A stretch of 64,000 nt of DNA, taken from positions 3,784,006 through 3,848,005 of the forward strand of contig OY969427.1 in assembly GCA_963699265.1 (NCBI GenBank). Direction: 5' to 3'. Made by a program: the position numbers and the translations under genes. The notes under the pieces are model-generated. The model did no database searches and had not been told where the DNA came from. It saw only the letters and a list, made by a program, of their open reading frames with translations. Source of the stretch: an uncultured Armatimonadetes bacterium. Lineage in GTDB: Bacteria > Armatimonadota > Armatimonadia > Armatimonadales > Capsulimonadaceae. Positions 4,768-46,596 of the stretch are shown here, in pieces. Each line of letters starts with the position of its first letter. Position 1 is the first letter of the stretch.

Positions 4768-4832
4768 TGTGCAACGCCTATTGACACAGAAGATTGCGTG
4801 TGTTAAGATAAGTTGTGCAATATTAGTGCACA
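4768..4832 (+). promoter_or_regulatory. promoter of the AraR-like regulator with flanking TGTGCA boxes (candidate auto-operator)
   Basis: TTGACA (4781-4786), 17-nt spacer, TAAGAT (4804-4809). A TGTGCAA box lies at 4768-4774, upstream of the -35. A perfect palindrome TGTGCA-N7-TGCACA lies at 4814-4832, just downstream of the -10. Confidence 0.55.
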
Positions 4833-4844
4833 GAGAATGATCAA

Positions 4845-6089
4845 ATGTCGAAAAAGGCAGTCGTCATCGACAGAGTACCGGTATACCGCAGTCTTCAACG
4901 CGAACTAAAGAAGCGCATTCACGGCGGTGAATGGGCCAAGGGCGGGTTGATTCCTAGCCGCCGCGCACTTGCGGACGAATTTGCTGTCTCTGTTCCCACT
5001 GTGCAAAAAGCTATCTCAGATATGGTGTCCGAAGGGCTCCTGCGTGTCAATGCTAAGCGTGGCACTTATGTTTTCGGTGATCCGACTCCCGAACCATCAG
5101 AGGTCTTCGAGTTCGCTCCTATAAGCAAGTCGCCAACACCAGTCGCCGTTGCTCAAGGGCCTGTTGCACTTGTTGGCGACATCCGGCCCAATGAAGGTTT
5201 TGGGTTCGCGCACGGTTGGTCGTTCGTGACGGTCAACGAGGCAGAGCTGGCTCTGTCGCAGATGGGGATCGCATCGCGTTTTTTCAATCGTTTCGCGGCC
5301 GATCCAACTTTAGGAAGCGCCGGTGCGCACATAGAGAGCCGGCAAAACACTAAGACTGATGCGGAGTTGATAAAGGCGATCGCGGAGTGCCGCCCGGCTG
5401 CAGTCGTGCTGCATGAATCCGTTCTTCACCCAGGTCAGCGAAGTTTGATCGACGAGGCAATCGACGCGGGGCTGTTCACAGTAGCCATAGGCTCGCGTAG
5501 CTTTGGTCCGAAGTGCGTGAGCGTCTCATACGACCTAGAAAATGCGGGCTTTCAAGCTGGGAGCCATTTAATTGAAACGGGATGCCGCCGGATTTTGTTT
5601 TTTTCCGCAGGGCAAACGGATTGGGTTCAATCGCGGTTAGCGGGCGTTCGAAGTGCAATTTTTACCACTCGGCCAGGGTCTGTAGAGCTAGTCGAGGCAA
5701 TTGGCGACCACGCCCTTGAGGAGGTTATCCGGACGTCCCGAGATTCGCATCCCCATGTGGCCGTGTCGTACGATTTTGCTAAGAAAATCTTGAGATCGGC
5801 ACCAGATGTGGACGGCGTTGTTGCAGTCAACGACGACGCTGCTTTCGGCTTTGTTCAAGCAGCTTCGGAGATTGGTTTGCGCATGGGAATTGATTATTCG
5901 ATTATCGGATTCGACGACAGTGCCGAGTCGCATGCGTTGGGATTATCGACACTTCACCCGCCTTGTGTAGGGATGGGCCGAGAAGCCGCCTACGTAGTCG
6001 CGAAAAGATTGCAAGGCCAAGAAGATTTCGGCGCGATTGTTCTGAGGTCGCGTCTCGTTGTGCGGGCGTCATCCGCCCACAGGAACTAA
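4845..6089 (+). CDS. AraR-like transcriptional regulator (GntR-type winged HTH fused to a LacI/GalR-type periplasmic-binding-fold sugar sensor)
   Basis: The N-terminus (PSRRALADEFAVSVPTVQKAISDMVSEGLLRVNAKRGTYV) is GntR-like. The C-terminus (DGVVAVNDDAAFGFVQAASEIGLRMGIDYSIIGFDD) is LacI-family sensor-like. A paralog lies at 26100..27353. Confidence 0.85.
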   Translation: MSKKAVVIDRVPVYRSLQRELKKRIHGGEWAKGGLIPSRRALADEFAVSVPTVQKAISDMVSEGLLRVNAKRGTYVFGDPTPEPSEVFEFAPISKSPTPVAVAQGPVALVGDIRPNEGFGFAHGWSFVTVNEAELALSQMGIASRFFNRFAADPTLGSAGAHIESRQNTKTDAELIKAIAECRPAAVVLHESVLHPGQRSLIDEAIDAGLFTVAIGSRSFGPKCVSVSYDLENAGFQAGSHLIETGCRRILFFSAGQTDWVQSRLAGVRSAIFTTRPGSVELVEAIGDHALEEVIRTSRDSHPHVAVSYDFAKKILRSAPDVDGVVAVNDDAAFGFVQAASEIGLRMGIDYSIIGFDDSAESHALGLSTLHPPCVGMGREAAYVVAKRLQGQEDFGAIVLRSRLVVRASSAHRN

Positions 6090-6128
6090 TATGCTGTTGT
6101 ACACAGAAGTCATAAGGAGACTATTGAT

Positions 6129-6929
6129 TTGAAACTCATTCGCACGCGCTCCCAAGGGTTCACCCTCATAGAGCTGCTCGTCGTCATAGCAATTATCGCC
6201 ATTCTCGCCGCGATACTTTTCCCTGTGTTTGCAAAGGCGCGTGAAAAGGCGCGTCAAACGACCTGCTCGTCCAATGAGAGGCAGCTTGGCCTGGCCATAC
6301 TGCAATACGAGCAGGACAACAACGAGAAGCTTCCGACGATCCTGTATGCCGCTGGCAACTACTACGGCGATGGATGGGGTGGGGCTGTCTATCCCTACGT
6401 TAAGGCGTTGGCAGTCTATGACTGCCCTGACGATACGCTCAGCCCTGGCCCGAACGTGGCTTACGCCTTTAATGCTGCACTTTGGAACACCACCTTAGCG
6501 CTTGATGTAGCGCCAGCCTCGACAGTGCTTCTCTTCGAGGCACCAGGGACGGCCTGCAACGTGACCACGAGCGACATTGCCGGATCCGGCGGCTGCGCGG
6601 GTTCAGGCATCTTTGGTTACGATACTGGAAACTGGAACGGGCACCAATATATCACAGGCGAGCAGGGTACTGGAACTGCAGTCGCAGCCGATCCCGGCAA
6701 CGCCCGACATAGCCAGGATAGCAACGACAGCTTGAACTATCTTGCAGCAGACGGCCATGTCAAGTTTCTTCCGATTGGCGACATCGCGCCGGGCACGACC
6801 ACCGATCCTACCGCGTACGGCAACGATACGGTTTCGAGCAATTCGCCGTATGTGAGAGTATCAAATAGCACAGAAGACCCGTCAAGCAAGCTTGTGGCTC
6901 CGCATGTGCTGACGTTCAATCCCAATTAG
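6129..6929 (+). CDS. prepilin-type N-terminal cleavage/methylation domain protein, DUF1559-like (pseudopilin-like), type A
   Basis: Class III signal ([37 protein letters not shown]) and C-terminal [12 protein letters not shown]. The track start at 6129 is a TTG. It lies 40 nt downstream of the regulator. Confidence 0.85.
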
Positions 6930-7099
6930 CCCGGTTCCGAGTCTGCGGTCGCCGCTAGCCAGAAAGCGCATGCAATTCTAGCGGCCACCGCAATGGATCC
7001 AATGAATAAAACAGCAACGTCACGCTTGAATTGAGGTAGAGTCTTAATGAATACCACGCAGCCAATTAGACAAGCTGCAGGCGGTCAACGGAGAACGAA

Positions 7100-7927
7100 A
7101 TGTCAACAAGCACAAAGCGATCAGCTGGCTTCACCCTCATAGAGCTGCTCGTCGTCATAGCCATCATAGCCATTCTCGCCGCGATACTTTTCCCCGTGTT
7201 TGCAAAGGCACGGGAAAAGGCGCGTCAAACGACCTGCTCGTCCAACCTGAGGCAACTTGGCCTCGCGATGATTCAATATGAGCAGGACAATAACGAGAAG
7301 CTTCCGCCAATCCTGTATGCCGCAGGCAATTATTACGGCGACGGTTGGGCGGGAATGATTTATCCGTACGTCAAGGCAACAGCAGTTTATGACTGTCCCG
7401 ACGATACTGTTGCACCCGTGGCCAATGTGCCGAACATGTCCTATTCCTTCAACGCAGCTCTCTACAACACGACACTGGCGCTCAATGTAGCGCCAGCGTT
7501 GACCGTGATGCTGTTCGAGCGGCCAGGCAACAACTGCGACCCGTCGTGCAGCACGAACAGCTTTACGTGTGACCAGAACGGTAGCCGCGGTTGCTCTACG
7601 TCAGGCATTTTCGGCTATGACACGGGCAACTCTAACGGCCACGCCTATATTGCGGGCGAGCAGGGAACGGGAACTGCGATCGCGGCTGATCCGGGCAACG
7701 CGCGTCACAGCCAAGACGCAAACGATAGCTTGAACTATCTCGGTGCCGACGGCCATGTCAAGTTCCTGCCGATTGGCGACATCGCGCCCGGCACTACAAC
7801 GAATCCGTTCACCTACGGCAACGACACGGTTTCGAGCAACTCTCCCTACGTCAGGGTGACCAGTAGCACAGAGGACCCGTCAAGTAAGCTTGTAGCCCCG
7901 CACGTGCTTACGTTCAATCCTAACTAA
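7100..7927 (+). CDS. prepilin-type N-terminal cleavage/methylation domain protein, DUF1559-like, type A (tandem paralog)
   Basis: Same motifs as 6129..6929. The first ~150 nt after the signal region and the last ~200 nt are nearly identical to the neighbouring gene. Confidence 0.85.
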
Positions 7928-7986
7928 ATTGGCTTGTTCGAGCACGACGCCTCAACATGCTCGTACAACTTGATCGTATTGACACT

Positions 7987-8081: not shown

Positions 8082-11000
8082 ATGAACTTTCGACAGAGAT
8101 TTTGTAGCATTCTCTTCGCAGCCATCTGCGCCTTGGCACTTTCACCGACTAGTGTGGCGCACGCCGGCGGCGTTCATTCCATATCCATAACCTCGCTTCC
8201 CATGGCCCGGTCGCCGATCACAATAGATGGAAACCTTTCCGATTGGCCGGACGTGCGGCCTGTGGAATATGTTCCGATTGCGCCTGGTTTAGCGAAGTCT
8301 GGCTCTCCTGCGCTCGATGCGTTGCGGAGGCATCCCGATTTTGCTGACATACAGGCATGCTATAGCGGGAAGGCTCTCTTTATCGGGATCGTCTGGACTG
8401 GCCTTTCTAAGAATGAAGCTGGCCAGTTTATGCAGCTGCATATTGTTTCGGATCGAACAGTTACCATCCGAATTCCGGAGTCCGGCGTCGCCGGATCGGA
8501 ACCGGTTGAGGAGATGGCCAGCGGGGGAGACGTTTGGCACAATATCTCCGCCAATGGGGGAGCGGTATCGAAGACGGCGTTCGATCCTGACGGTACGGTG
8601 ACCCAGGAAATTCGAATTCCCTGGGCGTATCTGACGTCCTCAGGCGTGCCATCCTCAATGCTGACGATGGCATTCGATTTGGAATGGCCGAATCTGACCG
8701 AGCCGTTCATTGGCCGCCTTCCACAAGAAGTGCTGAATCCTAACACCCACCTAACCGCGTGCTTTTTGACTTCACCCGGCAAGATTCTTGGTGGCGATGT
8801 GTATCTGGGCGATCCGGCAGACTGGGGTGTTCTGCGCTTTGTTCAATCGGCTGAAGCCAACGATACGAAATACTCCGTGATGGCTACAGGCGCGACGGAG
8901 ACGACGGTCCCGAAACTGACTGCTCCCATCGACATCAATGGTCGACTATCAGGCTGGCAAGCGGGACAGTTCCAGTCGATTGTCTTTGCGCCAGGCCTCC
9001 TGGGCGACCGCTACAGTGCGAAGATCGCTACGGCTTTCGACGACGAGTTTTTCTATATCGTGGCGCATGTTCATTCACCAGGCGGTCCATACAATACGGA
9101 AGCCGAAGCACGCCAGTCGGGCTTCGCTGGCGGCGATGCTTTGCAGATTCGCCTCAACGATGGAAAAAACACGGTCAACTTGTGCGCCTGGTACGACTCA
9201 GTTCGCCATTCGCCAGCGTTGACCGCAGATGGCGGAGATCTGAAAAACCCGTACCTACGTCAGCAAGGAGCCAAAGAGGCGTTCCTAGCGGATGCCGACT
9301 GCCAAGGCTATACTCAGGAGATTGCAATTCCGTGGAGCGTCCTGCCTGCTGGTGCTGCGCCGAATGTTGGCGACATGTGGAAAGGGACGTTCCAAGTTTG
9401 GTGGTCGGGCCTTGAGCCGCAGTTTACGGCAATCGCCAATCCAACGCTTGCGTCCGGCGGAGGCATCGCCTATACATATAAGCTGCCCAAAGAGGCAAAT
9501 GTGTCGCTCGGCATCTACGACACACAGGGGCATCTCGTCCAGACTCTTGTCAAAGATGCTCACCGCCGCACTGGCGCTAACACGGACTTCTGGAACGGTG
9601 AAGATCAATTTGGCAAGGTCGTGTCGCCGGGACGATACGAAGTCCGAGGGCTTTACCATCCACCTATCTCCGTTCAGCACGCGATCAGCATCGGAAATCC
9701 GGGCACTCCGCCATGGCCGACAGCAGACGGCAAAGGAGATTGGCTCAGCGACGAAGCTGCGCCTCAGGCGGCAGTGACTGACGGAACCAATGTCTATCTG
9801 GCCGCGCCCGGTTGCGAGAAAGGCAGCTCGGTCATCGCGGTAGATGCCAGCGGCAAGCGGATTTGGGGCTTTAGCATCGGCGAAAATCCACGTTGCGTTT
9901 CGCTTACGCTGCGTGGAAACTACCTTTACGTGCTCTATTCCGGCCCGCTTACGGTGGGCAAAGACGTGATTGGTCGTGGCGACCTGATTTGCATCGATAA
10001 GAACACCGGTACGACCGCACTGTTCAGCACCGAAAAGCCGACACTCAGGGTCGCGACCTATCCCTATATTGATCGGGTCGCTGGCCTGTGGGACTTGCGT
10101 GTCCATAAGTCGTTCAACCCGCTCAACTACGAGGGCCAACCGCGCTATTTCGCCAACGATGTTGGAGAGGTGTCGGACGCAGTTGGTCTAGCTGCAACTC
10201 CCACTCGCCTTTACGTATCGATGATCGAGCAAAATCAGATATTGGTCCTGGATGCGAACGACCGGCCAACAGTTGGACACAATCCAAATTACGCACCCCG
10301 TTGGGCTTCATACGCTGCCGAATGGCAAGATTTTGGCGGTCAGCGATGGTCAAATTGTGACCATCGATCCCTCCAGCAAGACGTCAACTGTCACGATCAA
10401 CCACGACCTTGCCGCGCCGCATGACGTTACCACAGATGCTGCAGGAAATATCTATGTCAGCGATTGGGCAGACTCGTTCCAGGTCAAGGTGTTTTCGCCC
10501 GATGGCAGTCGGCTAATTCGCGCAATCGGTGTCAAGGGCGGGCGTCCGTGGATCGGTGCTTGGAATCCGAATGGGATGCTGTTGCCGCGAGGAATCGCCG
10601 TCACCAACAATGGCAAGCTCTGGGTGGCCGAGGACGATGCTTCGCCAAACAGGATCAGCGTTTGGGATGCGGCCACCGGAGCGTTTATCCGCGACTACAT
10701 CGGGCCATCGCCATACGGCGGCGGTGCCAACTTCTGGGTAGATCCGAGCGATACGTCCACAGTGCTCGCGGAAGGCACCCTGTTCCATGTCGACTACGCA
10801 AAAAAGACCTGGACGCCTGTTTCGACTCCATTTCGCCGCATGAGCATGACAGAACCTTTTACGCCTAATGGCATGTTTGGCGGTCAGCCTGGCTGCAGAA
10901 CTATCGTTCACGACGGCAAGCAGTTCGTTTATTGGACGTATGGTACCTACGGCATGGTCGTAATGCGCCGCGATGGTGACCGTCTGACTCCCGTTGCCGC

Positions 11001-13238
11001 TGCTGGATGTCTGGGGCGCTGGACAGCCAACGAAGCCACCAGCCTGCACGTCTGGGACAGTGATATTGGCACGCACAATATCAAGAATTACTATCCCAGC
11101 TTCTTCGCGGGCCACAGTGGCGACGACTTCATATGGGTCAACAAGAATGGCGATGGGGAAGTCCAAGCAGACGAAGTTCAATGGATTCACACCATTTTTC
11201 GCTTTGACAAATGGGCGCCGGGGCTCGAGCCGGAATGGACAAGTGGCTGGGGATTTGGATTCGGTCCGGATGGCGCGCTGTATATGCCGGGCTTTTGTGT
11301 TGACCGCAATATATTGACAAGAGTCGAGTTGCAATCGTGGCTGCCGAACGGCAATCCGAATTATGATGCTTCCTCAGCCAAGGAGATCATCCTGGAACCG
11401 AGCGAGCTTGGGATTCAGGGTGTCTTTGTGACCGATAACAATCGAATTTTGCTGACGAGGCCATATGAAGGCCCGAAGCCGGTTCGCACTGAAGACTGCT
11501 ACGACCACGACGGCAACCATCTATGGACCATCGCGGCACCGCAAGGTGCTCAGCAGGCTGACGATATTCTGGCTGACAATGTGATCGCCGACATTCATGA
11601 GCCGGGCAACGAGCATCTGTTGGCGACTTGGCTTTGGCACGCAAACTTCAAGCCATATGTGTTTACCGAGGATGGTCTCTATGTCAGCAGTCTCCTGGAC
11701 GATACGCGCTTGGGGCCAACCGCAACCTGGGACGAGTCCTATAAGGACTACTTCCAGGCGCCCGACGGCAGTGCGTACATTATGGACGGCGTTAACGACG
11801 CTTACCATATCGACAAGATCATTGGTTTAGACCAAATTCACCGCTTCAGCGGAGCCGCTCACGGTAACGTCTGCCGATCTAAAGATATCGCAAGCTGCGA
11901 TGACCGCAAGCGCCAACGTGCCGCCACCATTGCCCCAACCGATCATCCATATGAAGTGGCTCGACAAGGCACCCGTAATTGACGGGGACTTGTCTGACTG
12001 GAACATGGATAGTGGCGTCGCGGTACATGGCACGAAGGGGCGTTCGGCTAAGATCGCGGTTGCACATGATGCGCAAAACCTGTATCTTGCGTTCGACGTA
12101 ACCGGCGCGAAAATGGTCAACAAGGGCGGAAACTGGCAGACGCTGTTCATTACCGGCGACTGTGACGACTTCATGTTCCACGCCAGTGCATATGCCGCTC
12201 ACTTTTCGCCAGCTGAAGGGGACGAGCGGTTGCTCCTCAGCGTGTTCCAGGGGCAACCAATCGCAGTGCTGTACAAGCCAGTGGTGTCCGGGACGACCGC
12301 GCCGACGAGGCTAATGGGCGCGACCATCGATCAGATTGTCAAGCTTCCGTCCGCCAAAATCGGCATTCAACGATCTGCTGACGGGTATACGCTCGAAGCA
12401 TCGGTTCCGCTGTCGGACCTTGGTATCGACCCTGCTCAAGGGACTATCGAACGGGGCGATGTTGGCGTCGTTTATGCTGACGAGACTGGGGCAAACCGAT
12501 CTTTGCGCCTCTATTACTACAACCACGACACGTCGATGACTGCGGACCTAACCACCGAAGCCACTCTCCAACCGGGAAACTGGGGCGAAATCGAAATGCC
12601 ACTCGGCCAAAACCCGATCAAGAACGGCGATTTTGAGGAGCCCTTGGCGACGAAAGTGGATCAAGGTTGGTTTGTCTCTGATTCCAAAAACGGCGGGAGT
12701 GCAGACATTAACGGCGACGTGTCTTACAGCGGCAACCACTCGCTTCGCTTGCGGGTAACTACGCCGGTTGACTACACGCCAGACTCCTTCAAGCTACCGG
12801 ACTACGACGCGTTTGTTCGGTCTGGGAACGGTGGCAAAGGCGGCGGGTTCGTGGAAGTCCGTCAGAACTTCCCTGTCGTCGGCGGTATGAAGTACAACCT
12901 GCGGTTCCACTTACATACGGAAGGCTTCCCTGGCGGAGAAAACAAGGATCCCGGTCCGAACCGTGGATATGTGGCCCTCGAAACGTGGATGGAGTGGATT
13001 GGTGCCGACGGCCGTGCCAACGGTCGGGAGTGGATCACGAACTGGCAGGATTCCGAATATCGCTTGGAATACAGTGTTCGACGGTCGCTTCAATGTCGGC
13101 GGCGTCACTGTGCCGTACACGGCTCCCCAAGGTGCCACGTCGGCTACGCTGGAGATTAGCCTCGTCGATAACCATGCCAATTCGACGCCTACAGCATACG
13201 TCGATGATGTGGAGTTTTCGCTCGCGCCGCAACAGTAA
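8082..13238 (+). pseudogene. giant secreted CBM9-like/FlgD-Ig/NHL-propeller/CBM4_9 protein, copy 1, interrupted by three +1 frameshifts (or assembly indels)
   Basis: Track ORFs 8082..10424, 10252..11982, 11900..13159 and 12963..13238 tile, in order, the full length of the paralog at 35821..40987. The junctions fall at about 10257, 11860 and 13055. It has a signal peptide (ALALSPTSVAHAGG). After removing 3 nt it would encode about 1,717 aa. Confidence 0.75.
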
Positions 13239-15951: not shown

Positions 15952-18118
15952 TTACGCTTGAGGAACTAAGGGCAAATCATAAAGTCGAAGCGGCATGCCG
16001 CGGGTTAGGTCGGCCATGATTAACGGCCGCTGCATTGCGGTCGCGTGCATATCCAAAAGGGCCGTGTCTGCTTCCGCGCCAACGAAATATCGGAACGTAA
16101 ATGTATGGTCTCCTTGATCGCTAAACACGCGCCGCTGGATGGAATTGATCACAGGCTCGTGATGGGCCATGACTGCACTGCGCAAAAGCGTAAAGCGTAG
16201 CCTGCTCGGTGTAGCGTCGGCGGCGTAAACGTCAGGCGCGACAATGCCTAATCGCCAGGCGGCAGCAGTATCGCCCTCCGTTTGGACTTCAATGAGCATG
16301 CCGTCGCGCAACGGCAATTCGCGCCCGTCAAAGAGCCGCTCGATCCAGCCACCAAGCACGCCGTCCGTTCGGCGCACAGCTTTACCGCGCAACGGTTGGA
16401 CAAGCTTTAGGAGCTTATGCTGCTCTCGCCAGTCCACCTTAAGCTTCAGTTCAGCAAATCCATTGGAGTAGACGCGCCACTCAGCGGAAAGTTTGCTTTG
16501 TCCGATTGTGCCCAATCGAATCCAAGATGCCATGAGTGGGCCAGTGTCAAAGACTTTTGGCTTGTCCCACTGCGCTTTCGCAACATGCTCTTCAGGGTAG
16601 CGATCCAGTCCGTGCGACCACGTATCAGATTCGTCCGCGTAAAGATCGAGGTCAGGAAGAGGGAGGGTCAAACCACTCGTGAGCGTTAGTTCCGAATCTG
16701 ATACCAATATGCCTGAATCAGTCGATAGAAGCTCCGCTGTGCCGTGCGCAGCCGGCAAATTTTTAATGGTCAACGCCTGTATTGATCCGCAAAACGCGCA
16801 TGGTTTGTGGTGCGATATCTAGCTCAGTTAGGATATTTGGCATGTCGCCATATTGCGTTTCAGCGGCAAGCAGCTGTACCGGCATCGGATTGCCGGTTTC
16901 GTCGATCAGGGACCAAGTCGGTAGCCACTGTTTCCAGTCGATCCACGGTGTGAACTCAATCGGCCCGTTGTACTCGCGGTCGGAAGCGTTGTACAGAACA
17001 ATCCGCTGAAGAGGATCGTCGGGAAGCAGGTTTATCTTTCGGCGCAGGCCTTCTTGCAGGAGGTTGTCCGCGACGTTTTGCGCGTAGCCAAGTTGCGCAA
17101 GCGGCATCTCGTATGCGCTTGGCAAGCAAGAGCCCCCGAGCGTATCATGGAAGTGATTGAAGCAGATGCGCTTCCAGGCTTCCTCAAGCTGGGTAGGGGT
17201 ATCGGGCGGGCAGACACTCGGATCGGACTGGTAAAACAGCTCTGCTTGACGGACAAGATGCTCCGCTTTTCGAACGGCAGTCTTTATGGGGCGGTAGACC
17301 GAATAGCAGCCGATCGCATGCTGCTGAAGCTCGCCGGTAACTAGAGGAAGCGAATCGCGCTTGGACCAGATGGTATCAAAATACCGCGATGGGGACGAAA
17401 AGACGATGTCCACGCCCTCGAACGCGTTCTGATGTTCGCGCAGCCATTGGATCTGCCGCTCGGTTGGGCCACCGCCATGGTCGCCGAAGCCAAAAAACAG
17501 CATGGCGTCGTCAATGCCCGGCGGGAGCTCCGAGTAGGCGTCTCGCACCTTGGACTCCTTGAGGTCGGTGCCCAGGTTGTACTCCTTGACAATCCGGTAA
17601 GTCACGACCTCCGGCGCGCCCTCTTGAGCGCGCCAGCGGAAGACGTTCGCTGGAAGCGCGCATTCGATCTGCTGCGGGCGCATCATGATGTAGCGATCCT
17701 GCCCCGCCGCGTGCATCAGACTGGATAGAAACGCGCTATGGCCGAAGCTATCAACATTGTATGCGATACGCGGGAACTGCCTCAGTGAGCGTTCGAAGTA
17801 GCGTTTCCCAATCTCAATCTGCTTTTCTATACCGAAATCGCTTGGCTGGTTGCAGTCGGGCTGAATCCACCATCCGCCGACCACCTCCCAGCGGCCCACC
17901 TCGATGTGCGCCCGCATGCGTGCGAAAAGCTGTGGATCGATGCGCTCGATTTCGTCGTAGACCCACGCCTCGCCGCGCGTGAACGTGAGATCGGGGTGCG
18001 CATCAAGCCGGTCGCAGGCGCTCCTGCAGGTTGCCAGCACTTCGTCCAATCCGCTCTGCCACGGCCAGAGCCAGATTGGATCGATGTGAGAATTGAAAAT
18101 GATATGGACGGTTTTCAT
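15952..18118 (-). pseudogene. GH38 alpha-mannosidase-like, copy 1, split by a +1 frameshift near 16774 (or assembly indel)
   Basis: ORF 16763..18118 (HIDPIWLWPW, GDHGGGPT motifs) plus ORF 15952..16773 together align end to end with the single 722-aa ORF at 41000..43168. Confidence 0.75.
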
Positions 18119-26030: not shown

Positions 26031-26099
26031 ATTTGCGCTTGTCAGTAATGTACACTTGTCCTGGTCTGTGCAATCATATTCGACAAAGGAAAGATCAAG

Positions 26100-27353
26100 A
26101 TGTTGACCAAAAAACACCTATTGAATCGCGATCCAGTATATCGCAATCTTCAGACCGAACTGCGTCGTCGAATCCATCAGGGCGACTGGACCAAGGGCGC
26201 GATGATACCCAGTCGCCGCGCACTTGCCGACGAGTTTCAAGTTTCGGTTCCTACGGTGCAAAAGGCCGTCGCGGATATGGTGTCCGAGGGCATTCTGCGT
26301 GTCAATGCAAAGCGCGGTACCTATGTCTTTGGTGATCCAGAGCCTGAAATCACCGACGAACCGGCTGCCTTGCGCGGGACTAGACATGGGGCTCATGGCA
26401 GTAGTGTTTCAGAGCCTGCCACTGGCCATGTCGCGCTGGTTGCAGACATCCGACCCGGTTCCACTGCGGATATTGCCAATCCATGGCCGTATATCACGGT
26501 GCACGAGGCCGAACATACATTATCTCAACTGGGTGTGGAATCGAGATTTTACAATCGATTTGCAATGCAACGGCGCACGCAACATGCTACTAGCGATTTG
26601 ATAGAAGAAGACGCAGAGTCTTGTTGACGGCTCGTGCATGGTGTCATCCGCGAGAATCCAGGCGTCGTCGTGATCCACGAAAGCGCACTATTAGCCAACG
26701 CGACAGAGCTGATTGAAATGTTTCGTGAATCGAAAGGCGATCTGATTGTCGTCGGCTCAAAAAGCTTTGGGCCAGGTTGCATAATGATCATGTATGACAA
26801 CAAGCAGGCTGCATACCAAGCGACAACTCACCTGCTTAGTGCAGGCTGCAGGCACATACTGTTCTTTGCGCCCTACCACGCAGACTGGGTTCAAACGCGA
26901 CTGGAGGGTGTGCGACTCGCAGTCGCCCATTCGAACGTGCCCGGAGTCGCGTTGACGGAACGTGTCGGAAAAGGCGATGTTGATGTTGTCGTGGCATTAG
27001 TGCACGACGAGCATCCGCATGTGCCGACGGCGTATCAGTTTGCGCGCAAGGTCTTAAACGGAAATGCCGTCATTGACGGCGTTGTTGCGGTCAACGACGA
27101 GGATGCGCTGGGCTTTATGACGGCTGCGGAGGAACTAGGAATGAAGCCAGGTGTTGACTATCGGATCATCGGCTTCGACGACGGCCCCGAATCCCAGTCA
27201 ATGGGCCTGTCTACGATGCATACGCCTTGCGCCGCAATGGGCCGCGAGGCAGCTCGAGTCGCAGCAGCAGCGATGCTCGGACAGCACGAAATTTCTTCAG
27301 TTGTCCTCAAATCGCGGCTGGTCGTGCGGGCGTCCAGCATGCCAAAGTCCTGA
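26100..27353 (+). pseudogene. AraR-like GntR/LacI-fold regulator, copy 2, interrupted by an in-frame TGA at 26625..26627
   Basis: ORFs 26100..26627 and 26634..27353 are in the same frame (both start coordinates are divisible by 3). Together they align with the 414-aa regulator at 4845..6089. The stop falls inside the sensor domain. Confidence 0.7.
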
Positions 27354-27566
27354 GGGACTCAAGTCACTCTTGCCAAGACTCGCCCGAACCTCACGCACTT
27401 CTAACCGCCTCCAAGGCCGTGCATCAGCCTCTACTTAGGGTGCGGTAATCACCTGGTTTCGCACCGCCCATCCCTCGCGCACGCGCCTGCCAAGAACTCT
27501 CACAATCCTAAATCTTACTCGCCGTTTGGTTTGTCTTAAGCCGAAGAATGCCAGATATTAAACGTC

Positions 27567-27619
27567 TTGACTTGCACACCGAAACGTGCTATCATGCTTA
27601 TGGTAAACGTGGTTGCACA
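27567..27619 (+). promoter_or_regulatory. sigma70 promoter with two TTGCACA boxes
   Basis: TTGACT (27567-27572), 17-nt spacer, TATCAT (27590-27595). TTGCACA boxes lie at 27572-27578 (in the spacer) and 27613-27619. Confidence 0.55.
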
Positions 27620-27906
27620 CTGAGTATAATACTAGCCGTGCCGCCATAAAGCTCTGCTAGACCGAACAGGGAAACCCGTGGTTGGCCGCGTCCACTTTCT
27701 GTGCTGGGCCGGATGACATCTCGCAATTATAAACACCTCATCTACACCGCACGTCTGGTCGTGTTAGTTATGGTCGCTATCCAAGCGGCAAGAATCAATG
27801 CCGCTTGTCGGCGGCGATCGGCGCACCAGACGCGGCTGGCTTTTGGCCTATTCGATCGTTCACATCAAGCTCGGCAACCGCCTTGACTTGATTGTGTCAG
27901 GCAAAA

Positions 27907-35656: not shown

Positions 35657-35820
35657 CAGTGTATCATTTTGTGCCAATCAACGCAATACGCCAGTATTTG
35701 AATCTCACAGCCACGGGCGATAAGGAATGAAAGAGCATTTCACAGGTTGCTCGTTGTAGTAGCAACTATCGCTGCACTAGAATCCATCTAGTACAAACCT
35801 TTCACCGAAAAAGACAACTC

Positions 35821-38800
35821 ATGAACAAAAATGTCATTTCCCGTTTGAACAGCCTCCCTTTAGGGATTGCACTGCTGATGCTCGCGCTCGCTTCGTTGGC
35901 TGCCAACGCAGGCGGGATTCGCACCATTCCGCTAACGTCAATTCCCTACGCTCGTGCGCCGATTACGATCGACGGCGACACGTCGGACTGGCCCGAGACG
36001 CGTCCCGTTATGTACATTCCGATTGATCCTGCGATGATCAAATCGGATTCACCAGGGCTCGCGCACCTGCGCGAGAGCGGCGACTCGGCGGATGTGCAAA
36101 TGGCGTATGATTCAAAAGCGCTTTACATTGCTTTAACCTGGAAAGGGCTTGAATCGCTTTCCCATGCCAGCGTCGTCGATTTCAATATCAACACCGACCG
36201 CATCGCGCACATTCGGATTACGACAAATGCCGGCGCAACCGGCGGCATCTTTGAGTCGCGCCTGAGCGAGCAGGATAGCTGGCGCACCCTTCCTGTCGGC
36301 GCCGCGAAAAGCGTGCTCAAAACGTACAAAGATGGTGGCGCAACACAAGAAATCCGCATACCGTGGACCTATTTGACCGCATCGCTAACTGCGCCAACGA
36401 CCTTGACGTTGGTGGCCGACCTGCAGTGGCCGGACCTGACGGCCGATGTGCTCAGCGACCTGCCCACGCAGGCTCGGCACGACAACACGCACCTGACCGA
36501 CTGCTTTTTGACTGCCCCCTCCCAGCTGTTTACGCGTGGTGGCTATCTGCCCAATCCAAACGACTGGGGTGCGCTCCACTTTGTCGACCAGCCCCACGAC
36601 AATACGACCCAGATGTCGCCTGAAGCGTCCGGCGCGACAGAATTGTACGTTCCGAAAGCAGCAGCGCCGGTGGCAGTCGATGGCCGACTTTCCGAGTGGA
36701 ATCCAGTGCAGTTTCAAACCATCGCCGCGCTTCCAGGCTATCTCGGAAATCGGTACAGCGCCAAAATCGCCGCGTCCTACGATGCGTTCTATCTGTATCT
36801 CGCGGCGCATGTCAAGTCTGTAGACGGCCCGTTCAACACCCAGCCCGAAGCGACCCAGGCTGGTTTTGCAGGCGGCGACTGCCTCCAGATTCGTCTGAAC
36901 GATGGCAAGCACACGGTAAATCTTTGCGGCTGGTACGATTCTGTCAACAAGAAGCCCGCCTTAACTGCTGACGGCATCGACCTGAGCAAACCATACCTGT
37001 TGGATCAGGGCGCGAAAGAGACGTTTGTTCGCGACCCTGACAGCCAGGGCTACACACAAGAAATAGCGATCCCTTGGAGTCTGCTGCCAAATGGATCCGC
37101 GCCAAATCCAGGAGATAGCTGGAAAGGTTCATTCCAGATCTGGTGGGCGGGGCTAAATCCACAGTTCACAGTGATGGCAAGCGCGAGTCTGGCGTCGAGC
37201 GGCGGCATCGCGTATTCCTACCACCTGCCAAATGAAGCGGATGTCACGGTCGGCGTTTTCGATCAGCAGGGGCATTTAATACGCGCCCTGGCTAAAGATG
37301 TTCATCGACGCGCTGGCCTAAATACGGAGTTTTGGGATGGACGGGATCAGTACGGCGCGTTCGTTTCGCCAGGCACCTACCAAATCAAAGGCATCTATCA
37401 CCCTCCGATATATGCGCAGCCATTGATCAGCATAGGAAATCCCGGCACGCCGCCTTGGCCCACCGCTGACGGTACCGGCGACTGGTTGAGCGACGAGATG
37501 ACTCCGCAGGGTGTCGCGACCGACGGAACAAACGTCTATCTCGCCACTCCCGGTTCCGAGAAAGGCAGCGCGATCATAAAAGTAGGCCCAGATGGCAAGC
37601 GGATGTGGGGCTTCGGCGAGGGATTCAGCTATCCCCGAAGCGTTGCTCTGGCACTTCACGGCCAATACCTCTATGCGCTCTTTTCGGGGCCGGAGTTTGT
37701 CAAGGCTACGGACGGCTCGAATAAGGATGTCCCGGTTGAGCAGGCATTCATGATCTGCCTCGACACTACCACTGGCGCACCTGCTCAATTTAGCTCCCAA
37801 AAACCTGATCTGACCATCGCGACCTGGCCCTTCGTCGATAAGATGGCTGGACTCTGGGATCTGCGAGTCAACAAGACGTTCTCGCCCGCCACATACGGCG
37901 GACAGCCCCGCTACGCCACGGACGATCTTGGGGAACCAACAGACGCCGTCGGAGTCGCCGCTTCCGGAGACCGGCTTTATGTCTCAATGATGAGCGAAAA
38001 CCAAATACTCGTGCTCGACGCCGCGACTGGAAAGCAGGTTGACACTCTCACGGTGCCTCAGCCAGTGGGCCTTCATGCGCTGGCTGACGGTAAGGTGCTT
38101 GCGGTCAGCGAGGGCAAGGTGGTCAGCATTGACCCGACCGCGAAAAATTACACGGTTGTGATTAATCACGATCTAGTAGCGCCAGCGCACCTTACGACCG
38201 ACACGGCTGGCAATATCTATGTTAGCGACTGGGGCACGTCGTTTCAGGTCAAGGAGTTTTCGCCGCAGGGCACCCTCATTCGCGCCATTGGAAAGCCAGG
38301 CGGCAGACCGTGGATCGGCAAGTGGGATCCCAGCGGCATGCTGGTGCCGCACGGTGTCGCGGTGACCAACGACGGCAAGTTGTGGGTCGCGGAAGACGAT
38401 ACGTCGCCGCCGCGAATTAGCGTTTGGGACACATCGACCGGAAACCTCGTTCGCGATTATCTTGGGCCAACGGCGTATGGCGGCGGCGGCCTTTTCTGGG
38501 CCGATCCGACGGACATCTCGTCAATCTTTGGCCTGAACACCATCTTCCATGTTGACTACGCGCGCAAGACCTGGACGCCTGTCGCTACAGCGTTGCGCCG
38601 AATGAGCCAATTCGAGCCGTTCACGGTCGGCGCCATGACGGGACAGCCATCGCCGCGTATCATCACGCATGATGGCAAGCAGTACTATTTTGAAAGCAAC
38701 GGTTGGTGTGTGACAGTGCTTCGAAAGGATGACGACCTCTTCAAGCCGGTCGCTGCAATGGGCGACCTCTTCTGGCCAAGATCGCACGATGGCACCGACA

Positions 38801-40987
38801 TTGGCATTTTCGACAGCAATCTCGGCACCCATTACATTCAAAACTACTTCCCACCGTTCTTCAAAGGACACTCCAGCCAAAACTTCGTTTGGGTCAACAA
38901 AAACGGCGACGGTGAAGTTCAAGAAGACGAAATGGAGTGGGCTCCAACCGCGGCCTTAGGCCCTGGAAACTCGTATATTCCAGGAACAGTTCCCGGAATG
39001 ACAGACCTACTGGGCTTACGGAGTTGGGGCTGATGGTTCGGTGTATGGGTGCGGGCATGTCGGAGGCAAAACGATAATCGGCAAGTTTCCGATTCAGAGC
39101 TGGTTGCCAAATGGTGTTCCAGTCTATAGTGTCGCGTCTCTAAAACCCGCAGTTGTACGACCGGATTCCGATGGAGGCGAGCAAGCCGTTTACGTTGACA
39201 ACTTCGACCATGTCTATCTTTGCCGAGGCTATGGCTACGAAGGCAACGACAAGGACGGCATCGATGTCTATGACCAGAACAGCAATTGGCTCTGGGGCAT
39301 TGCCGAAACGAAGCAGCAGCAGCCCGACGATATTTTGGCGAACTCCATAATTGGAGAGTTTACAGAGCCTCACGGAGAAGACATTATCGGCAGTTGGCTC
39401 TGGCATGGAAACTTCAAGCCCTACCTCTTTACAAGCGACGGCCTGTATGTCTCCAGCCTGCTTGACGATACGCAGCTAGGCCCGACTGCGACATGGGACG
39501 AATCCTACAAGCGCTATTTCCAAGGCCCAGACGGAACGGCGTACATAGTCAACGGCGGCAAGGACACGTTCCATATCGACAAGATTGTTGGACTTGATCA
39601 ACTGCACCGCTTCACCGGCACGATCACTGTTACGGAAGCAGCATTGCGATCTTCTCAGGCAAGGGCTCAGATTCTGGCCTCAACACCGGCACCACTTCCG
39701 CAGCCGGTAATCCATGTGACCTATGTTAAGAGCGCGCCGAAAATCGACGGCGACCTTTCCGATTGGGACATGCGCGGCGGTGTCGCACTCATCGGCTCTC
39801 GCAACCGGTCGGCACATGTTGCCCTGACTCGCGATGCTGATACGCTATACCTAGCATACGATGTCCACGGCGCAAAGTTTGTCAACAAGGGGACAGACTG
39901 GCGGACGATGTTCATTTCGGGAGACTGCGTCAACCTGATGCTGCATGTGGGCGAGTTCAAGCCTCACTTCGGGCCTGCCGAAGGCGACGAGCGCCTGTTG
40001 TTCAGCATCTATCAGGGCCAGCCTGTTGCCGTTCTGTATCGGCCCGTGGTGCCCGGAACAGCAAACCCAGTTCACCTCATGGCAACCACGATCGATCAGA
40101 TCGTTCGTCTGCCAAGCGCGAAGATTGCCTACCATCGCACTGCTGGCGGTTACACGCTGGAGGCATCGGTGCCGCTCAAGGACATTGGGCTTGGCGGGGG
40201 CGCGGTTGAAACGCTCAAGGGCGATGTCGGTGTGATCTATGCAGACGAGACGGGTTCAGACCGGTCGCTGCGCTTGTACTACTATAACAAACACACGGCG
40301 ATGACCGCCGACCTGACTACCGAGGCGACCCTTCAGCCAGGCGAGTGGGGCGATATCGAGCTTCCGCTGGGAGTCAACCTGCTCAAAAACGGCGACTTTG
40401 AAGACCCGCTGGCGACATCGCCCGATGACGGGTGGGCGATACAGTCGAGCAGGGCTGGCGCGACGGCCGAGATTTCAAGCGACTTTGCGTACACGGGATC
40501 GCATTCGCTTGAGCTCGAGGCGACAGTGCCGAACAGCTATGCGGATGCCGATATCAATCGGCCTGCGTCGGAAAAGGACGAGTTCTTTCGCTCCGTGAAC
40601 GGCGGGAAGGGTGGTGCACGGGTCGAGGTGAGGCAGCGGGTGGTCGTGTCGCCGGGCAAGAGGTATGACCTGCGGCTTCATTACCACGTCGTAGATTATC
40701 CCAACGCAAATGACCATCCCGGAGCGCAGCGTGGATACTGCGCTTTCCAGACATACATCGAGTGGGAAGGCCCCGTGCGCGGGATCCTGGTGAACAATCT
40801 GCTAGGCCCAGTTGGCGGCTGGAACTTGCTGCACGATGATCGCTGGAACAACTACGATGTCAAGGGGCCGTATCTAGCACCGACAGGTGTCGATGCGATG
40901 CTTGTCCATTTAACGCTAGAAGACAATGCAACGCTTGTCACTCCAAAAGTCTATATCGACGATGCGGAGTTGGTGGAAGCGGCCTAA
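35821..40987 (+). pseudogene. giant secreted CBM9-like/FlgD-Ig/NHL-propeller/CBM4_9 protein, copy 2, with one +1 frameshift near 39001 (or assembly indel)
   Basis: ORFs 35821..39033 and 39041..40987. The second frame is open from 39002 and reads QTYWAYGVGADGSVYGCGH, colinear with copy 1 (EWTSGWGFGFGPDGALY). It would encode about 1,721 aa if 1 nt is removed. Confidence 0.75.
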
Positions 40988-41017
40988 TCTCCACCGATTT
41001 TGCGCGGCCAACACCAT

Positions 41018-43168
41018 ATGAAGACCATTCATGTCATCTTGAACGCTCACCTCGATCCGATCTGGCTTTGGCCTTGGCAGGCGGGTTTGGACGAGGCGAT
41101 CGCAACGTGCCGCAGCGCGTGCGATCGCCTTGACCAAAATCCCGACATTATCTTTTCTCGCGGAGAAGCATGGGTCTACGACCAGTTCGAGCGAGTCGAT
41201 CCAAAGCTTTTTGACCGGATTCGGCAGCATATTGAAGCGAAACGTTGGGAAATCGTTGGCGGCTGGTGGATACAGCCCGATTGCAACCTTCCTAGCGAAT
41301 GGGCGATGCGCTGGCAGATCAGGCTGGGTAAGGAGTACTTCGAGAAGAAGTTTGGTGTCTTTCCACGATATGGCTATAACGTCGATTCGTTTGGCCATGC
41401 CGCCGGATTGCCTAAGCTCATGACGGACGCTGGCCAGGACAGCTACATCATGATGCGCCCCGGCCCGTCGGAGATGGCTCTGCCCGCGTCAATCTTTCGA
41501 TGGCGCGGATATTCTGATGGTCCCGAAGTTCTTACCGCCCGCATTCACGGATATCAGACAAACACGGAGGTCTCGCTAGATTACGTGCACCGCTGCGTCT
41601 CCGGCGTTCCTGCCGGTATTGACCATGCGCTATGCTTTGTCGGGATTGGCGACCATGGCGGCGGCCCGACCCAGCAGCAGATCGAGTGGTGCCGACAGCA
41701 TGCTGGTGTTGTCCCAGGCTGGCAGATGCAGTTTTCCTCGCCGGGCCGATTTTTCGATGCCGTCCGAGCGGATATTGACAAGCTGCCTGTCGTCACCGGA
41801 GAGCTGCAGCCCCATGCCGTCGGCTGCTACTCGGTGATTCGGTCTGTAAAGACAGCCGTGCGGCGCGCTGAGCATCTCCTTGCGCAAGCCGAAGTCGTGG
41901 CACGAGCCGAAGACGCCCCAGCGATTGCTGAAGCATGGAAGCGGGTCTGCTTCAACCACTTCCATGACACGTTCGGCGGCACGAGTATCCCCAGTGCGTA
42001 TCCGATTGTCCTTGATCAGATTGGCGCGGCCTCTATGGTCGCAGACGAAATACTGCAGCATGGGCTGCGCCGCAGGATGAATGAGCTTCCTGACAACGAA
42101 CTGCAGCGGGTAGTGCTCTATAATGCTTCGTCAGCTCCATACGCTGGCTACGTTGAATTTGAGCCATGGGTGGATTGGTGGCAGCCCTGGCTACCGGATT
42201 GCGTCTTGCTCGATTCGAGCGGCAACCGGGTTCCATTCCAAGTAATCGAATCCGAAGCATTTGCCCGGTTCGGAACAAACGGCGGCTTCACACGCCTGCT
42301 TTTCCATAGCTCGCTCGGGCCTAATGAACTGAACGCGCTTCGCATTCAGCGCAACTGCGGAGATGTGACTTTTCAGCCCAGTGTATTCGCGGCAGAGGGA
42401 AAAATCAGCAACGACGCTGGCATTGCGGTCTCCCGGGATGGCCCACAGGCCATGGATGGCGCAGCTTGGCCGACCTTCGAACTCCATCTCAATGACGACC
42501 GCAGCGATACTTGGAGTCACGGCGTCATCGGCTTTTCGGACGAAATCGTCAGCAAGGCAAGTTGGACAGAACCAGTCATCGTTGACAGCGGACCTATAAT
42601 GGCGTCGCTCGTGGCTGACGGCACGATTGGGGACAGCGAGCTGCGCTCGGAGTGGCGAGTTTATGCGGGCGAGCCATATGCCGAATGGATTTTGAACGTG
42701 AATTTTCGCGAGAAGCATAAAATGCTTAAGCTCGCGATCAGGTCGAACGGGGGATTCGAAGAAGATCGCATCGATGGCGTCATGGGAGGTGCACTAGTGA
42801 GACCGAACAGCGGCGCGGAGCGCCCATTACGAGACTGGACGCTCATCAGGCAGCTAAGCGGGCCAAGTCTTGGGATTGTCGCGCCGGACGTTTACGGCAT
42901 CGACGGTTCGCCCGACCGAGTCCGCCTAACCCTCCTTCGAAGTCCCGCAATGGCGCATCATGAGCCTGTTGACATCGCGTCGGCAATACGAGCGGTCATC
43001 GCCGACCGAGGCACGCACACGTTTCGGTTCCGGTATTATTGTGGGAATGAGATCACAGAGCAGACTTTGGAGCCATCCGCGTTCTCCATGCAACGCCCGC
43101 CGGTCATTGCTGATTTGACGAGAGGGATGCCGCTGGAGTTTCGGTCCAACGTCAATCGGTCAGTCTAG
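41018..43168 (+). CDS. GH38 alpha-mannosidase-like, copy 2 (intact)
   Basis: Motifs HLDPIWLWPW and GIGDHGGGPT. I prefer the ATG at 41018 (MKTIHVILNAH) within track ORF 41000..43168. Confidence 0.85.
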   Translation: MKTIHVILNAHLDPIWLWPWQAGLDEAIATCRSACDRLDQNPDIIFSRGEAWVYDQFERVDPKLFDRIRQHIEAKRWEIVGGWWIQPDCNLPSEWAMRWQIRLGKEYFEKKFGVFPRYGYNVDSFGHAAGLPKLMTDAGQDSYIMMRPGPSEMALPASIFRWRGYSDGPEVLTARIHGYQTNTEVSLDYVHRCVSGVPAGIDHALCFVGIGDHGGGPTQQQIEWCRQHAGVVPGWQMQFSSPGRFFDAVRADIDKLPVVTGELQPHAVGCYSVIRSVKTAVRRAEHLLAQAEVVARAEDAPAIAEAWKRVCFNHFHDTFGGTSIPSAYPIVLDQIGAASMVADEILQHGLRRRMNELPDNELQRVVLYNASSAPYAGYVEFEPWVDWWQPWLPDCVLLDSSGNRVPFQVIESEAFARFGTNGGFTRLLFHSSLGPNELNALRIQRNCGDVTFQPSVFAAEGKISNDAGIAVSRDGPQAMDGAAWPTFELHLNDDRSDTWSHGVIGFSDEIVSKASWTEPVIVDSGPIMASLVADGTIGDSELRSEWRVYAGEPYAEWILNVNFREKHKMLKLAIRSNGGFEEDRIDGVMGGALVRPNSGAERPLRDWTLIRQLSGPSLGIVAPDVYGIDGSPDRVRLTLLRSPAMAHHEPVDIASAIRAVIADRGTHTFRFRYYCGNEITEQTLEPSAFSMQRPPVIADLTRGMPLEFRSNVNRSV

Positions 43169-44131: not shown

Positions 44132-44197
44132 CGTAATCTCCAAGTCAAGAGTAAATTAGTACGATCGGGCTGCAAGTCTTAGCTCGATTCCATCATT

Positions 44198-44261
44198 ATC
44201 CTAGCAGAATATCGTGGTCTTGTCAAGCATAATGGTACAGTATGTAAAAATCTATTGCACA
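44198..44261 (-). promoter_or_regulatory. sigma70 promoter plus conserved upstream two-box element
   Basis: Read on the reverse strand: TGTGCAA (44261-44255), 16 nt, TGTACC (44239-44234), then TTGACA (44226-44221), 17-nt spacer, TAGGAT (44203-44198). Confidence 0.6.
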
Positions 44262-44358
44262 GCGGATTCATGGGCTGAATCCCGAATCCGTGCTGCCAGT
44301 GAACTAGTCTCTGCAAGAAGCACTTTCTTCAAGTTGGCAGCAGTTGCGATCGCAAATA

Positions 44359-44399
44359 AAATGGCCGCGATTCTCGCCGATTGAGAATCGCGGCCATTT
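44359..44399 (-). terminator. hairpin terminator (GGCCGCGA family)
   Basis: 17-bp stem AAATGGCCGCGATTCTC / GAGAATCGCGGCCATTT. A/T runs on both flanks allow termination in either direction. Confidence 0.7.
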
Positions 44400-44421
44400 C
44401 TTGCCTAGATTAGAATCTGCG

Positions 44422-45294: not shown

Positions 45295-45370
45295 CGTTTC
45301 CTCGCTTGTCGAAAGTTGAAATATTACGGGCGGTTCGCAACTCGACCTTCAGAGCTCGAAACCTGTACCC

Positions 45371-45434
45371 ATACTATCAGACAATTAGCCGCTTGTCAAG
45401 CATATTGTCACAGTATGTTAATGTTTGTTGCACA
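45371..45434 (-). promoter_or_regulatory. sigma70 promoter plus conserved upstream two-box element
   Basis: Read on the reverse strand: TGTGCAA (45434-45428), 16 nt, TGTGAC (45412-45407), TTGACA (45399-45394), 17-nt spacer, TAGTAT (45376-45371). Confidence 0.6.
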
Positions 45435-45536
45435 GACACAGGAGTAACCCACGTGTTGAGCTTGCCGCTCTCTGTGAAACGGTCAGTGCAACATCCTTTG
45501 CTGCTTCCTCCGGCGCTGGCCCGACAAAAAATTAAT

Positions 45537-45569
45537 GGCCGCGACTCATTCCCGTGAAGAGTCGCGGCC
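45537..45569 (-). terminator. hairpin terminator (GGCCGCGA family)
   Basis: 11-bp stem GGCCGCGACTC / GAGTCGCGGCC with an 11-nt loop. Confidence 0.6.
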
Positions 45570-45597
45570 ACGTTGTCTTTTAGGTCAGAACTACCGT

Positions 45598-46464
45598 TTA
45601 GACGGGGCTGAATGTCAAGGTCGCTGATCCTTGCTGTGCGCAGGAAGCTGTTGAGGAAGTTCCCGGGTTCGTCGCCGAGTCCATGCAGGAAGTCCCTGAC
45701 GCGAACGCTTGATTGTTGTTAGGCACAAACTGTTCCGCACCCGGCGTGGCCGCGTCGAAACCGGTTGATATCTTGCCGGCCAGCAGATACTTCACATGTC
45801 CGTCGCATGCAAGATAGTTGGCGCCGCCATTGTGAAATGCCTGAGGAATAATCAAGTCGATCGGCTGGCCGGTAGGTTCGCCGGTGGCATACTTTCCATT
45901 TCGACCGCCTGGATAACCGAAGCCGCCACTAGACCAAAATGTTCGGTCCATTGTGGACAGCGATGACTGGTCGGCTCCCCAGGTAGCAGCGGGAAGCGTC
46001 AAGTTGATGTAAGTCTGCATTTCACACAGGAGAACAGTCGATGCGGGCGCGTTCAACTTGCCGACCGATATTCCAGAGTTTCCTGGAATCGAAGGTATTG
46101 TCGCGGTGCTTCCAGAGATTGTCTCTGGCGTAGCAAGGTTGAAGTTCATGGAGTAGGAGCACGCTGCGAAACCGGCCTGCGGAACTGATGGGTCGTCAGG
46201 ACACTGATATACAGCCGTCGCCTTAACATAGGGATACACCGGAGTTGCCCAACCCTGGCTGTTGATGTCCATGGCCGGATAGCACTCGTCGTAATCCTGA
46301 TTGTATTGAATGATCGCGAGGCCGAGCTGCTTTTCGTTGCTCGCGCAAGACGTCTGCCGCGCCTTCTCGCGCGCAGTCGCGAACACTGGAAAAAGAATGG
46401 CTGCTAGTATGGCTATGATCGCTATCACTACGAGCAGCTCAATGAGTGTAAAACCTCGTTTCAT
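45598..46464 (-). CDS. prepilin-type N-terminal cleavage/methylation domain protein, DUF1559-like, type B
   Basis: [40 protein letters not shown] and [18 protein letters not shown] prefer the ATG at 46464 (GAGGTG upstream) within track ORF 45598..46470. Confidence 0.85.
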
Positions 46465-46532
46465 CTTCACCTCTCTGGTCTAATTTGAAATAAATGCGGT
46501 CGGGTGGTCCGTCGCAGACCCGATCTTCAGAC

Positions 46533-46596
46533 ATACTATCAAAGTATCGGCAGATTGTCAAGCGAATTGGTACACTATGTAAACATATATTGTACA
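46533..46596 (-). promoter_or_regulatory. sigma70 promoter plus conserved upstream two-box element
   Basis: Read on the reverse strand: TGTACAA (46596-46590), 16 nt, TGTACC (46574-46569), TTGACA (46561-46556), 17-nt spacer, TAGTAT (46538-46533). Confidence 0.6.

Follow-up and report, generated by a model that had tools for sequence, protein, structure and literature searches.

An AraR-type regulator and its probable 19-bp operator at the promoters of a glycan locus from an uncultured Armatimonadetes bacterium

A TGTGCAA/TTGCACA box recurs at the promoters of a 42-kb glycan locus in a 64,000-nucleotide stretch of DNA from an uncultured Armatimonadetes bacterium of the Capsulimonadaceae (contig OY969427.1, positions 3,784,006 to 3,848,005), referred to here as the window. 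Five units of this locus carry a site. The first is the regulator operon, which holds the regulator gene R1, two DUF1559 pilin-like genes and the frame-broken gene of a giant protein. The second is a divergent region in which a BD-FAE esterase operon with GH38 and GH116 genes lies on the minus strand and the operon of an 826-aa GDE_C-like hydrolase and a SASA protein lies on the plus strand. The remaining units comprise the pectate-lyase-fold/CBM, AXE1 and DUF6785 genes (Pfam) downstream of site P4b, the operon of a second giant protein, a 648-aa protein and GH38, and three monocistronic DUF1559 genes. Judged by these neighbours, the regulon that the sites likely define is a local one, which includes the DUF1559 pilin-like genes together with those for glycoside hydrolases, esterases and giant propeller proteins. 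The better sites outside the locus precede paralogs of locus genes: the site at 4485901 stands ahead of a gene for a pectate-lyase-fold protein with CBM13, that at 2836679 ahead of one for a DUF6785/DUF6784 membrane protein, and that at 1479503 ahead of one for a GH42-like protein.

Two regulator genes, R1 and its paralog R2, lie in the locus. R1 begins with a GntR winged helix-turn-helix (PF00392, residues 14-76, E 2.5e-15) and ends with a LacI/GalR-type effector domain of the periplasmic-binding-protein fold (PF13377, E 1.1e-19; also PF13407 and PF00532). A search of the PDB matched the head of R1 to YvoA/NagR (E 1.7e-8) and to the N-terminal domain (NTD) of AraR (4egy, E 3.3e-5), and matched its body to LacI-family sensor structures with E values down to 4.7e-14. 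The part of R2 that precedes its in-frame TGA is 175 aa long and retains the whole DNA-binding domain, and the recognition helix is nearly identical in both proteins (VPTVQKAI/VxDM). About eight full-length paralogs of the R1 type are present in the genome.

On re-checking, every box listed in the initial annotation was found where it had been placed. TGTGCAA or its complement begins at 4768, 4814, 19241, 26067, 27572, 27613, 35650, 44255 and 45428, a TGTACAA variant lies at 46590, and partner half-boxes occur at 4827-4832 (TGCACA) and 26049-26054 (TGTACA). A coding copy at 12060 had been cited as a sign that the motif is not exclusive to promoters, and this was confirmed, with four more coding copies that had not been listed (5000, 23465, 36093 and 45171). 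The statistic offered for the box, at least 11 copies in about 1.5 kb of promoter DNA against about 8 expected per window, is weak. Counted on both strands, there are 14 copies in the window compared to 9.65 +/- 3.06 in 100 dinucleotide-preserving shuffles, 11 of which reach 14, and whole-window over-representation is not significant. The genome-wide comparison of intergenic and coding DNA that the initial annotation had proposed was also run and was unremarkable: the bare 7-mer is 1.9 times as dense in non-coding as in coding DNA, which places it 1468th of 8192 7-mers and is typical of an A+T-rich word. However, this does not refute the motif, as a local regulon is not properly tested by intergenic enrichment of the bare 7-mer over a whole genome. 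Non-coding DNA between 4401 and 47040 amounts to 4,291 bp and contains 9 copies, compared to 0.45 expected from the non-coding rate of the remaining genome (Poisson p = 1.3e-9), and among 630 7-mers of equal base composition TGTGCAA is the commonest there, the runner-up having 4 copies. The claim that the box marks essentially every strong promoter of the locus was borne out, with a box at 7/7 strong TTGACA-N17 promoters (score of at least 10/12).

When the sites were aligned in one orientation, the 7-mer was followed by exactly nine bases and then, in most sites, by ACA (for example TGTGCAACCACGTTTACCA at P4b and TGTGCAAGTATGTTGACTA at P5). The 7-mer is therefore a regulatory box shared by the promoters, as first proposed, but the true unit is a 19-bp inverted repeat, TGTGCAAy-N3-rTTGCACA, with one strong and one degenerate half. 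Its consensus is TGTGCAAT-AAT-ATTGCACA, which contains the GntR-type pattern TGT-N13-ACA. The 5.07-Mb genome has 10 copies of TGTGCAA-N9-ACA, and six of these fall within the window (1.3% of the genome), all of them non-coding and at promoters, whereas the control spacings N6, N7, N8, N10, N11 and N12 gave 0-2 copies each in the window. The sites P3 and P1b, ahead of the two regulator genes, match at 16/20 positions. An Rfam scan of the window returned two tRNAs only, which places the box outside any known RNA family. The sites and promoters are collected in Table 1.

Table 1. Regulators, promoters and 19-bp sites of the locus in window coordinates; rank is the genome-wide rank of the site score with a relatives-only matrix.
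Feature	Position	Strand	Sequence or promoter elements	Rank	Remarks
R1	4845..6089	+			414 aa; GntR winged helix and LacI-type sugar-binding domain (AraR architecture)
R2	26100..27353	+			Paralog of R1 (49% identity); in-frame TGA at 26625-26627
Promoter P1	4781..4809	+	TTGACA-N17-TAAGAT		Regulator operon
Site P1a	4768..4786	+	TGTGCAACGCCTATTGACA	300	Strong left half, weak right half coinciding with the -35 hexamer; centre about -40; score 9.5
Site P1b	4814..4832	+	TGTGCAATATTAGTGCACA	1	Best palindrome; centre about +7 of P1, spanning about +1 to +19; score 22.7
Promoter P2	19211..19239	+	TTGACA-N17-TATTAT
Site P2	19241..19259	+	TGTGCAACAGTGTATCACA	2	Begins 1 nt past -10
Site P3	26067..26085	+	TGTGCAATCATATTCGACA	4	Ends 14 nt ahead of R2 start codon
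Promoter P4	27567..27595	+	TTGACT-N17-TATCAT
Site P4b	27601..27619	+	TGGTAAACGTGGTTGCACA	8	Centre about +8 of P4; begins 5 nt past -10
Promoter P5	35604..35632	+	TTGACA-N17-TATCAT		Drives 1070-aa giant protein, 648-aa protein, GH38
Site P5	35638..35656	+	TAGTCAACATACTTGCACA	21	Begins 5 nt past -10
pil1 distal site	44243..44261	-	TGTGCAATAGATTTTTACA	6	Centre about -61
pil1 promoter	44226-44198	-	TTGACA-N17-TAGGAT
pil1 proximal site	44221..44239	-	TGTACCATTATGCTTGACA	163	Weak, putative; ends in -35 hexamer, 22 bp from distal site; score 11.0
pil2 distal site	45416..45434	-	TGTGCAACAAACATTAACA	83
pil2 promoter	45399-45371	-
pil2 proximal site	45394-45412			703	Weak candidate
pil3 distal site	46578..46596	-	TGTACAATATATGTTTACA	46	TGTACAA variant
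pil3 promoter	46561-46533	-
pil3 proximal site	46556-46574			1030	Weak candidate

No close ortholog of R1 was found in 40 relatives, where the best match was 42% identical (G015), and a scan of metagenome contigs for close R1 orthologs yielded nothing useful. A scan of genome contigs gave one useful locus, L029, and a protein search supplied the others. Together these are five Armatimonadota contigs (L029 and L036 to L039) with regulators 51-54% identical to R1, and 5/5 bear the motif. At L029, TGTGCAAGATTATAGCACA begins 1 nt past the -10 of the regulator promoter; the exact pattern has 3 copies only in that whole genome, which gives no expanded regulon under the strict pattern. In L036, L037 and L039 the motif follows the -10 in a divergent region equivalent to that of P2, between a BD-FAE or GH172 gene and the gene of an 817-aa protein, and positional counterparts of site P2 were located in L036 (1361), L037 (850), L039 (8383) and L029 (5905). 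In L036 and L037 the motif also stands ahead of nearly every DUF1559 gene, about 57 nt before the ATG, with a layout of -10, 5 nt and then TAGTCAAtgttaTTGCACA that is the layout of window P5. L038 uses the TGTACAA variant. Over the 86.9 kb of relatives' DNA, 18/20 matches scoring at least 14 fell within the intergenic 8.5% (binomial p = 8e-18, a value inflated by paralogous promoters). The regulator of G015 has the same recognition helix as R1, and a TGTGCAAT box begins 5 nt past its -10 with the partner half 3 bp closer.

For the reverse test, a symmetric matrix was built from the relatives' sites only (consensus TGTGCAATAATATTGCACA) and scanned over every position of the genome. This matrix placed P1b, P2, P3, the distal site of pil1, P4b and P5 all within the first 21 ranks (Table 1). 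It gave 48 matches scoring at least 14 in the genome, with 7 in the window, and 7/7 of these were intergenic. The extended motif, the specificity of its spacing, its restriction to promoters of the locus, its conservation near homologous regulators in other genomes and the domains of the regulator are all direct observations. They point with good confidence to the box being the better-conserved half of a 19-bp operator for a sugar-released repressor, which is probably the R1 protein encoded in the locus. The initial annotation had tied the box to AraR-like regulators, and this link is supported by the R1 domains, the presence of the best palindrome at the R1 promoter and the co-occurrence across genomes. 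R1 is likely the binder of the operator and likely autoregulated, and the TGA-interrupted R2 product probably binds it also.

At the promoters of the regulator, the hydrolases and the giant protein, the placement of the sites agrees with the earlier proposal that a box at or after the -10 looks like repression. Four TTGACA-N17-TATnAT promoters have their sites at about +4 to +8. In the mechanism proposed here, a dimer of R1 would bind the 19-bp operator, and at P1, P2, P4 and P5, where the operator lies at about +1 to +20, right after the -10, the bound dimer would block RNA polymerase. R1 would repress its own operon in this way. A sugar freed from the target glycan would then bind the LacI-type sensor domain, and the repressor would leave the DNA, which would turn on the R1 operon, the operons of hydrolases and esterases, and the genes for giant propeller and DUF1559 pilin-like proteins. 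That R1 binds the operator, that it represses and does not activate, and that a sugar is its effector are predictions from the sequence.

Several points weigh against this reading. The operator copy P4a is a half-site only: the TTGCACA at 27572-27578 overlaps the -35 end of P4, but the 19-mer at 27560-27578 scores -9.5. The second half of P1a is poor, and this site is weak with the relatives-only matrix. The relatives' sites were found with a matrix derived from this window, and genes across the genome were called only roughly, by a home-made, self-trained periodic Markov model. A same-genus genome lacks the regulator, which leaves no close ortholog for footprinting. The three pilin-like promoters of the window and several of those in L036 and L037 are paralogous copies, so site counts overstate independence. 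Lastly, the good sites at the pilin-like promoters are near -61, an activator-like position, and the sites that overlap the -35 are weak (ranks 163-1030).

This last point bears on a rival explanation in which the regulator has a dual function, the same protein repressing from sites after the -10 and activating the three pilin-like genes from -61 in a class-I manner. Each of these three units has a full 19-bp site near -61 and a weak candidate 22 bp downstream that ends in the -35. A distal site that is a good match, centred about -61 from the predicted start in 3/3 units, together with the poor scores of the candidates overlapping the -35, is what this explanation expects. However, the pilin-like promoters are near-consensus already (TTGACA-N17 with a TG-extended -10), so an activator should be unnecessary, the weak site that overlaps the -35 is two helical turns from the distal one, the sites of the pilin-like promoters in L036 and L037 occupy about +1 to +20, where a repressor would be expected, and AraR of B. 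subtilis is documented as a repressor only (PMC1950556). Dual function is considered unlikely on this balance. The initial annotation had read the upstream box at the pilin-like genes as activation or a second regulator. The upstream position is correct, but neither idea is needed, as cooperative repression is equally possible because the weak second site ends in the -35, 22 bp downstream. A second regulator finds no support, since R1 and R2 hardly differ in the recognition helix and show no sign of two specificities. The two-box layout described for these genes does contain two 7-mers, but the gap between them is 15 nt (a 22-bp period) and not 16. Activation at the pilin-like promoters is thus possible but not needed to explain the data.

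It is much less probable that the repeat is the site of another transcription factor, either a global regulator of the Crp/Fnr type (TGTGA-N6-TCACA-like) or the HxlR-type protein encoded at 47041-47433. The outer TGTG...CACA does resemble Crp-type half-sites, and the HxlR-family gene stands at the border of the locus. However, the TGTG-N11-CACA of the repeat spans 19 bp compared to the 16-bp Crp layout, with no enrichment of other spacings, and its distribution in the genome is local and not global. The sites are confined to loci of R1 homologs in six genomes, including the promoters of those regulators themselves, and relatives without the regulator have the pattern at background counts only. 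The remaining explanation, that the boxes are non-functional leftovers of promoter duplication copied along with the duplicated genes, is barely credible: the three pilin-like units are clearly tandem copies (17/20 identities over long stretches) and P4 and P5 have some flanking similarity, but outside the paralogous pilin-like promoters P1, P2, P3, P4 and P5 share an element of about 19 bp alone while their flanks differ, its orientation and position vary, its distant TGT and ACA ends are held at exactly N13, and it is kept at non-paralogous promoters of other genomes, where protein identity is only about 52%. An element of a sigma factor was considered separately and rejected, as the box has no single placement: it lies upstream of the core promoter in some cases, inside or downstream of it in others, and in either orientation.

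The closest known system is AraR of B. subtilis, which joins a GntR head to a LacI/GalR-type sensor, represses through one or two boxes and is autoregulated (PMC1950556). The operator signature of GntR proteins is GT-N(0-15)-AC (PMC1950556), and half-site spacing is flexible for AraR (PMC3592433). The R1 system is similar in its chimeric regulator, in a palindrome that fits this signature, in operators that overlap promoters, in a regulator gene with its own operator and in locus promoters with one or two boxes; the variable spacing has a parallel in the partner half of G015 that lies 3 bp closer (compare L002). Unlike the 16-bp operator of AraR (ATTTGTACGTACAAAT), the operator here is 19 bp (TGTGCAAT-N3-ATTGCACA), the protein similarity is remote (NTD E 3.3e-5) and the phylum is Armatimonadota. 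The targets also differ, as here they are GH38, GH116, GH63/GDE-like and pectate-lyase-fold proteins, acetyl esterases, giant propeller proteins and DUF1559 pilin-like proteins. No araA/B/D-type or arabinose-transport genes were found by Pfam among the genes of the window. By these comparisons the predicted R1 system has the architecture and the mode of action of AraR, but arabinose is not what it regulates.

Likenesses to other families are more general. Repressors of the LacI family and of the GntR/HutC type (NagR/DasR with dre sites) are also local, autoregulated and sugar-sensing, with palindromic sites at the promoters of catabolic clusters. LacI-family regulons have been reconstructed by comparative genomics (PMC4052901), and the approach of this study is similar in its inference from a motif and its conservation beside orthologous regulators. 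However, R1 has a GntR head on a LacI body, unlike either group, and dre sites are 16 bp while the sites of LacI proteins usually measure 14-20 bp and have CG at the centre. Sites of Crp/Fnr share the outer TGTG...CACA symmetry and a position near -61, as at the pilin-like promoters, but Crp/Fnr is global with a 16-bp TGTGA-N6-TCACA site, whereas the repeat described here is 19 bp, local and co-occurs with AraR-type genes. No description of this motif, or of DUF1559 genes linked to such regulators, was found in the literature searched, and no published transcription-factor motif of this kind was found for Armatimonadota.

The mechanism is conventional, and what is newly defined here is the operator and its link to the DUF1559 pilin-like genes. 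The analysis provides a concrete, testable operator and regulon for Armatimonadota and predicts that these genes share their sugar-responsive control with glycoside hydrolases and esterases. To our knowledge the DUF1559 family has no known function, and just four papers in the library searched refer to it; a shared control with enzymes that degrade glycans offers a usable lead to what it does. Tentatively, and with considerable doubt, a wider pattern can be sketched in which Armatimonadota, and perhaps other phyla rich in DUF1559, forage for glycans with modular units of one GntR/LacI-hybrid regulator, one type of 19-bp 8-N3-8 operator, one enzyme set and DUF1559 genes. In such units the substrate would induce the pilin-like proteins, which would serve at the surface or in uptake, and the regulator might repress from +1 and activate from -61. 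About 88 DUF1559/N-methyl pilin-like genes were counted in the genome. Of its 18 regulator genes that encode a LacI-type sensor, 14 lie no more than 1.5 kb from a DUF1559 gene, where 1.1 would be expected by chance (maximum 6 in 2000 trials).

Distant AraR-type paralogs in G010 and G015 (L003, L007, L018, L021, L022 and L026) each have a 19-bp 8-N3-8 palindrome of their own, 27-56 nt ahead of the start codon (for example CGTATCAATAAATGATACG and TATACTGTTATTCAGTATA). These palindromes suggest that AraR-type paralogs use a common 8-N3-8 operator frame with paralog-specific half-sites, and paralogous loci may be kept separate by the differing half-site bases within that shared frame. Palindromes of the ATCGCAAT type lie 3' of regulator genes at 14 minus-strand loci, and these were not used as operator evidence. 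A near-identical 19-mer, TGTGCAAA(G/C)AC(A/C)GGGAACA, recurs across many genomes of a sister family (G027-G040); it is probably part of some conserved gene or RNA, with no connection to the operator. At L038 three overlapping TTGTACA-type 19-bp sites, 13 bp apart, lie at 5401-5445 in a divergent GH38/pilin-like region.

Some features of the window itself were also recorded. The sequence CAGTGT(A/T) follows the box in P2 and P5 (19248-19258 and 35657-35667) and in the pilin-like promoters of L037; it is the right half-site in P2 and lies outside the 19-mer in P5 and L037. Long untranslated leaders separate the operators of P4 and P5 from the first start codons (about 260 nt at 27630-27891 and 165-220 nt at 35657-35820), and neither leader has a match in Rfam. 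Three pairs of genes are duplicated, for the giant propeller protein (8082-13159 and 35821-39033), GH38 (15952-18118 and 41000-43168) and the regulator (26100-27353 and 4845-6089), and each pair combines an intact copy with one that a frame shift or stop has disrupted; the damage may reflect decay or assembly error. Genes for tRNA-Leu and tRNA-Gly (4145-4400) lie immediately upstream of the 42-kb locus, and the locus may be an accessory island, because the same-genus genome mentioned above is without the regulator.

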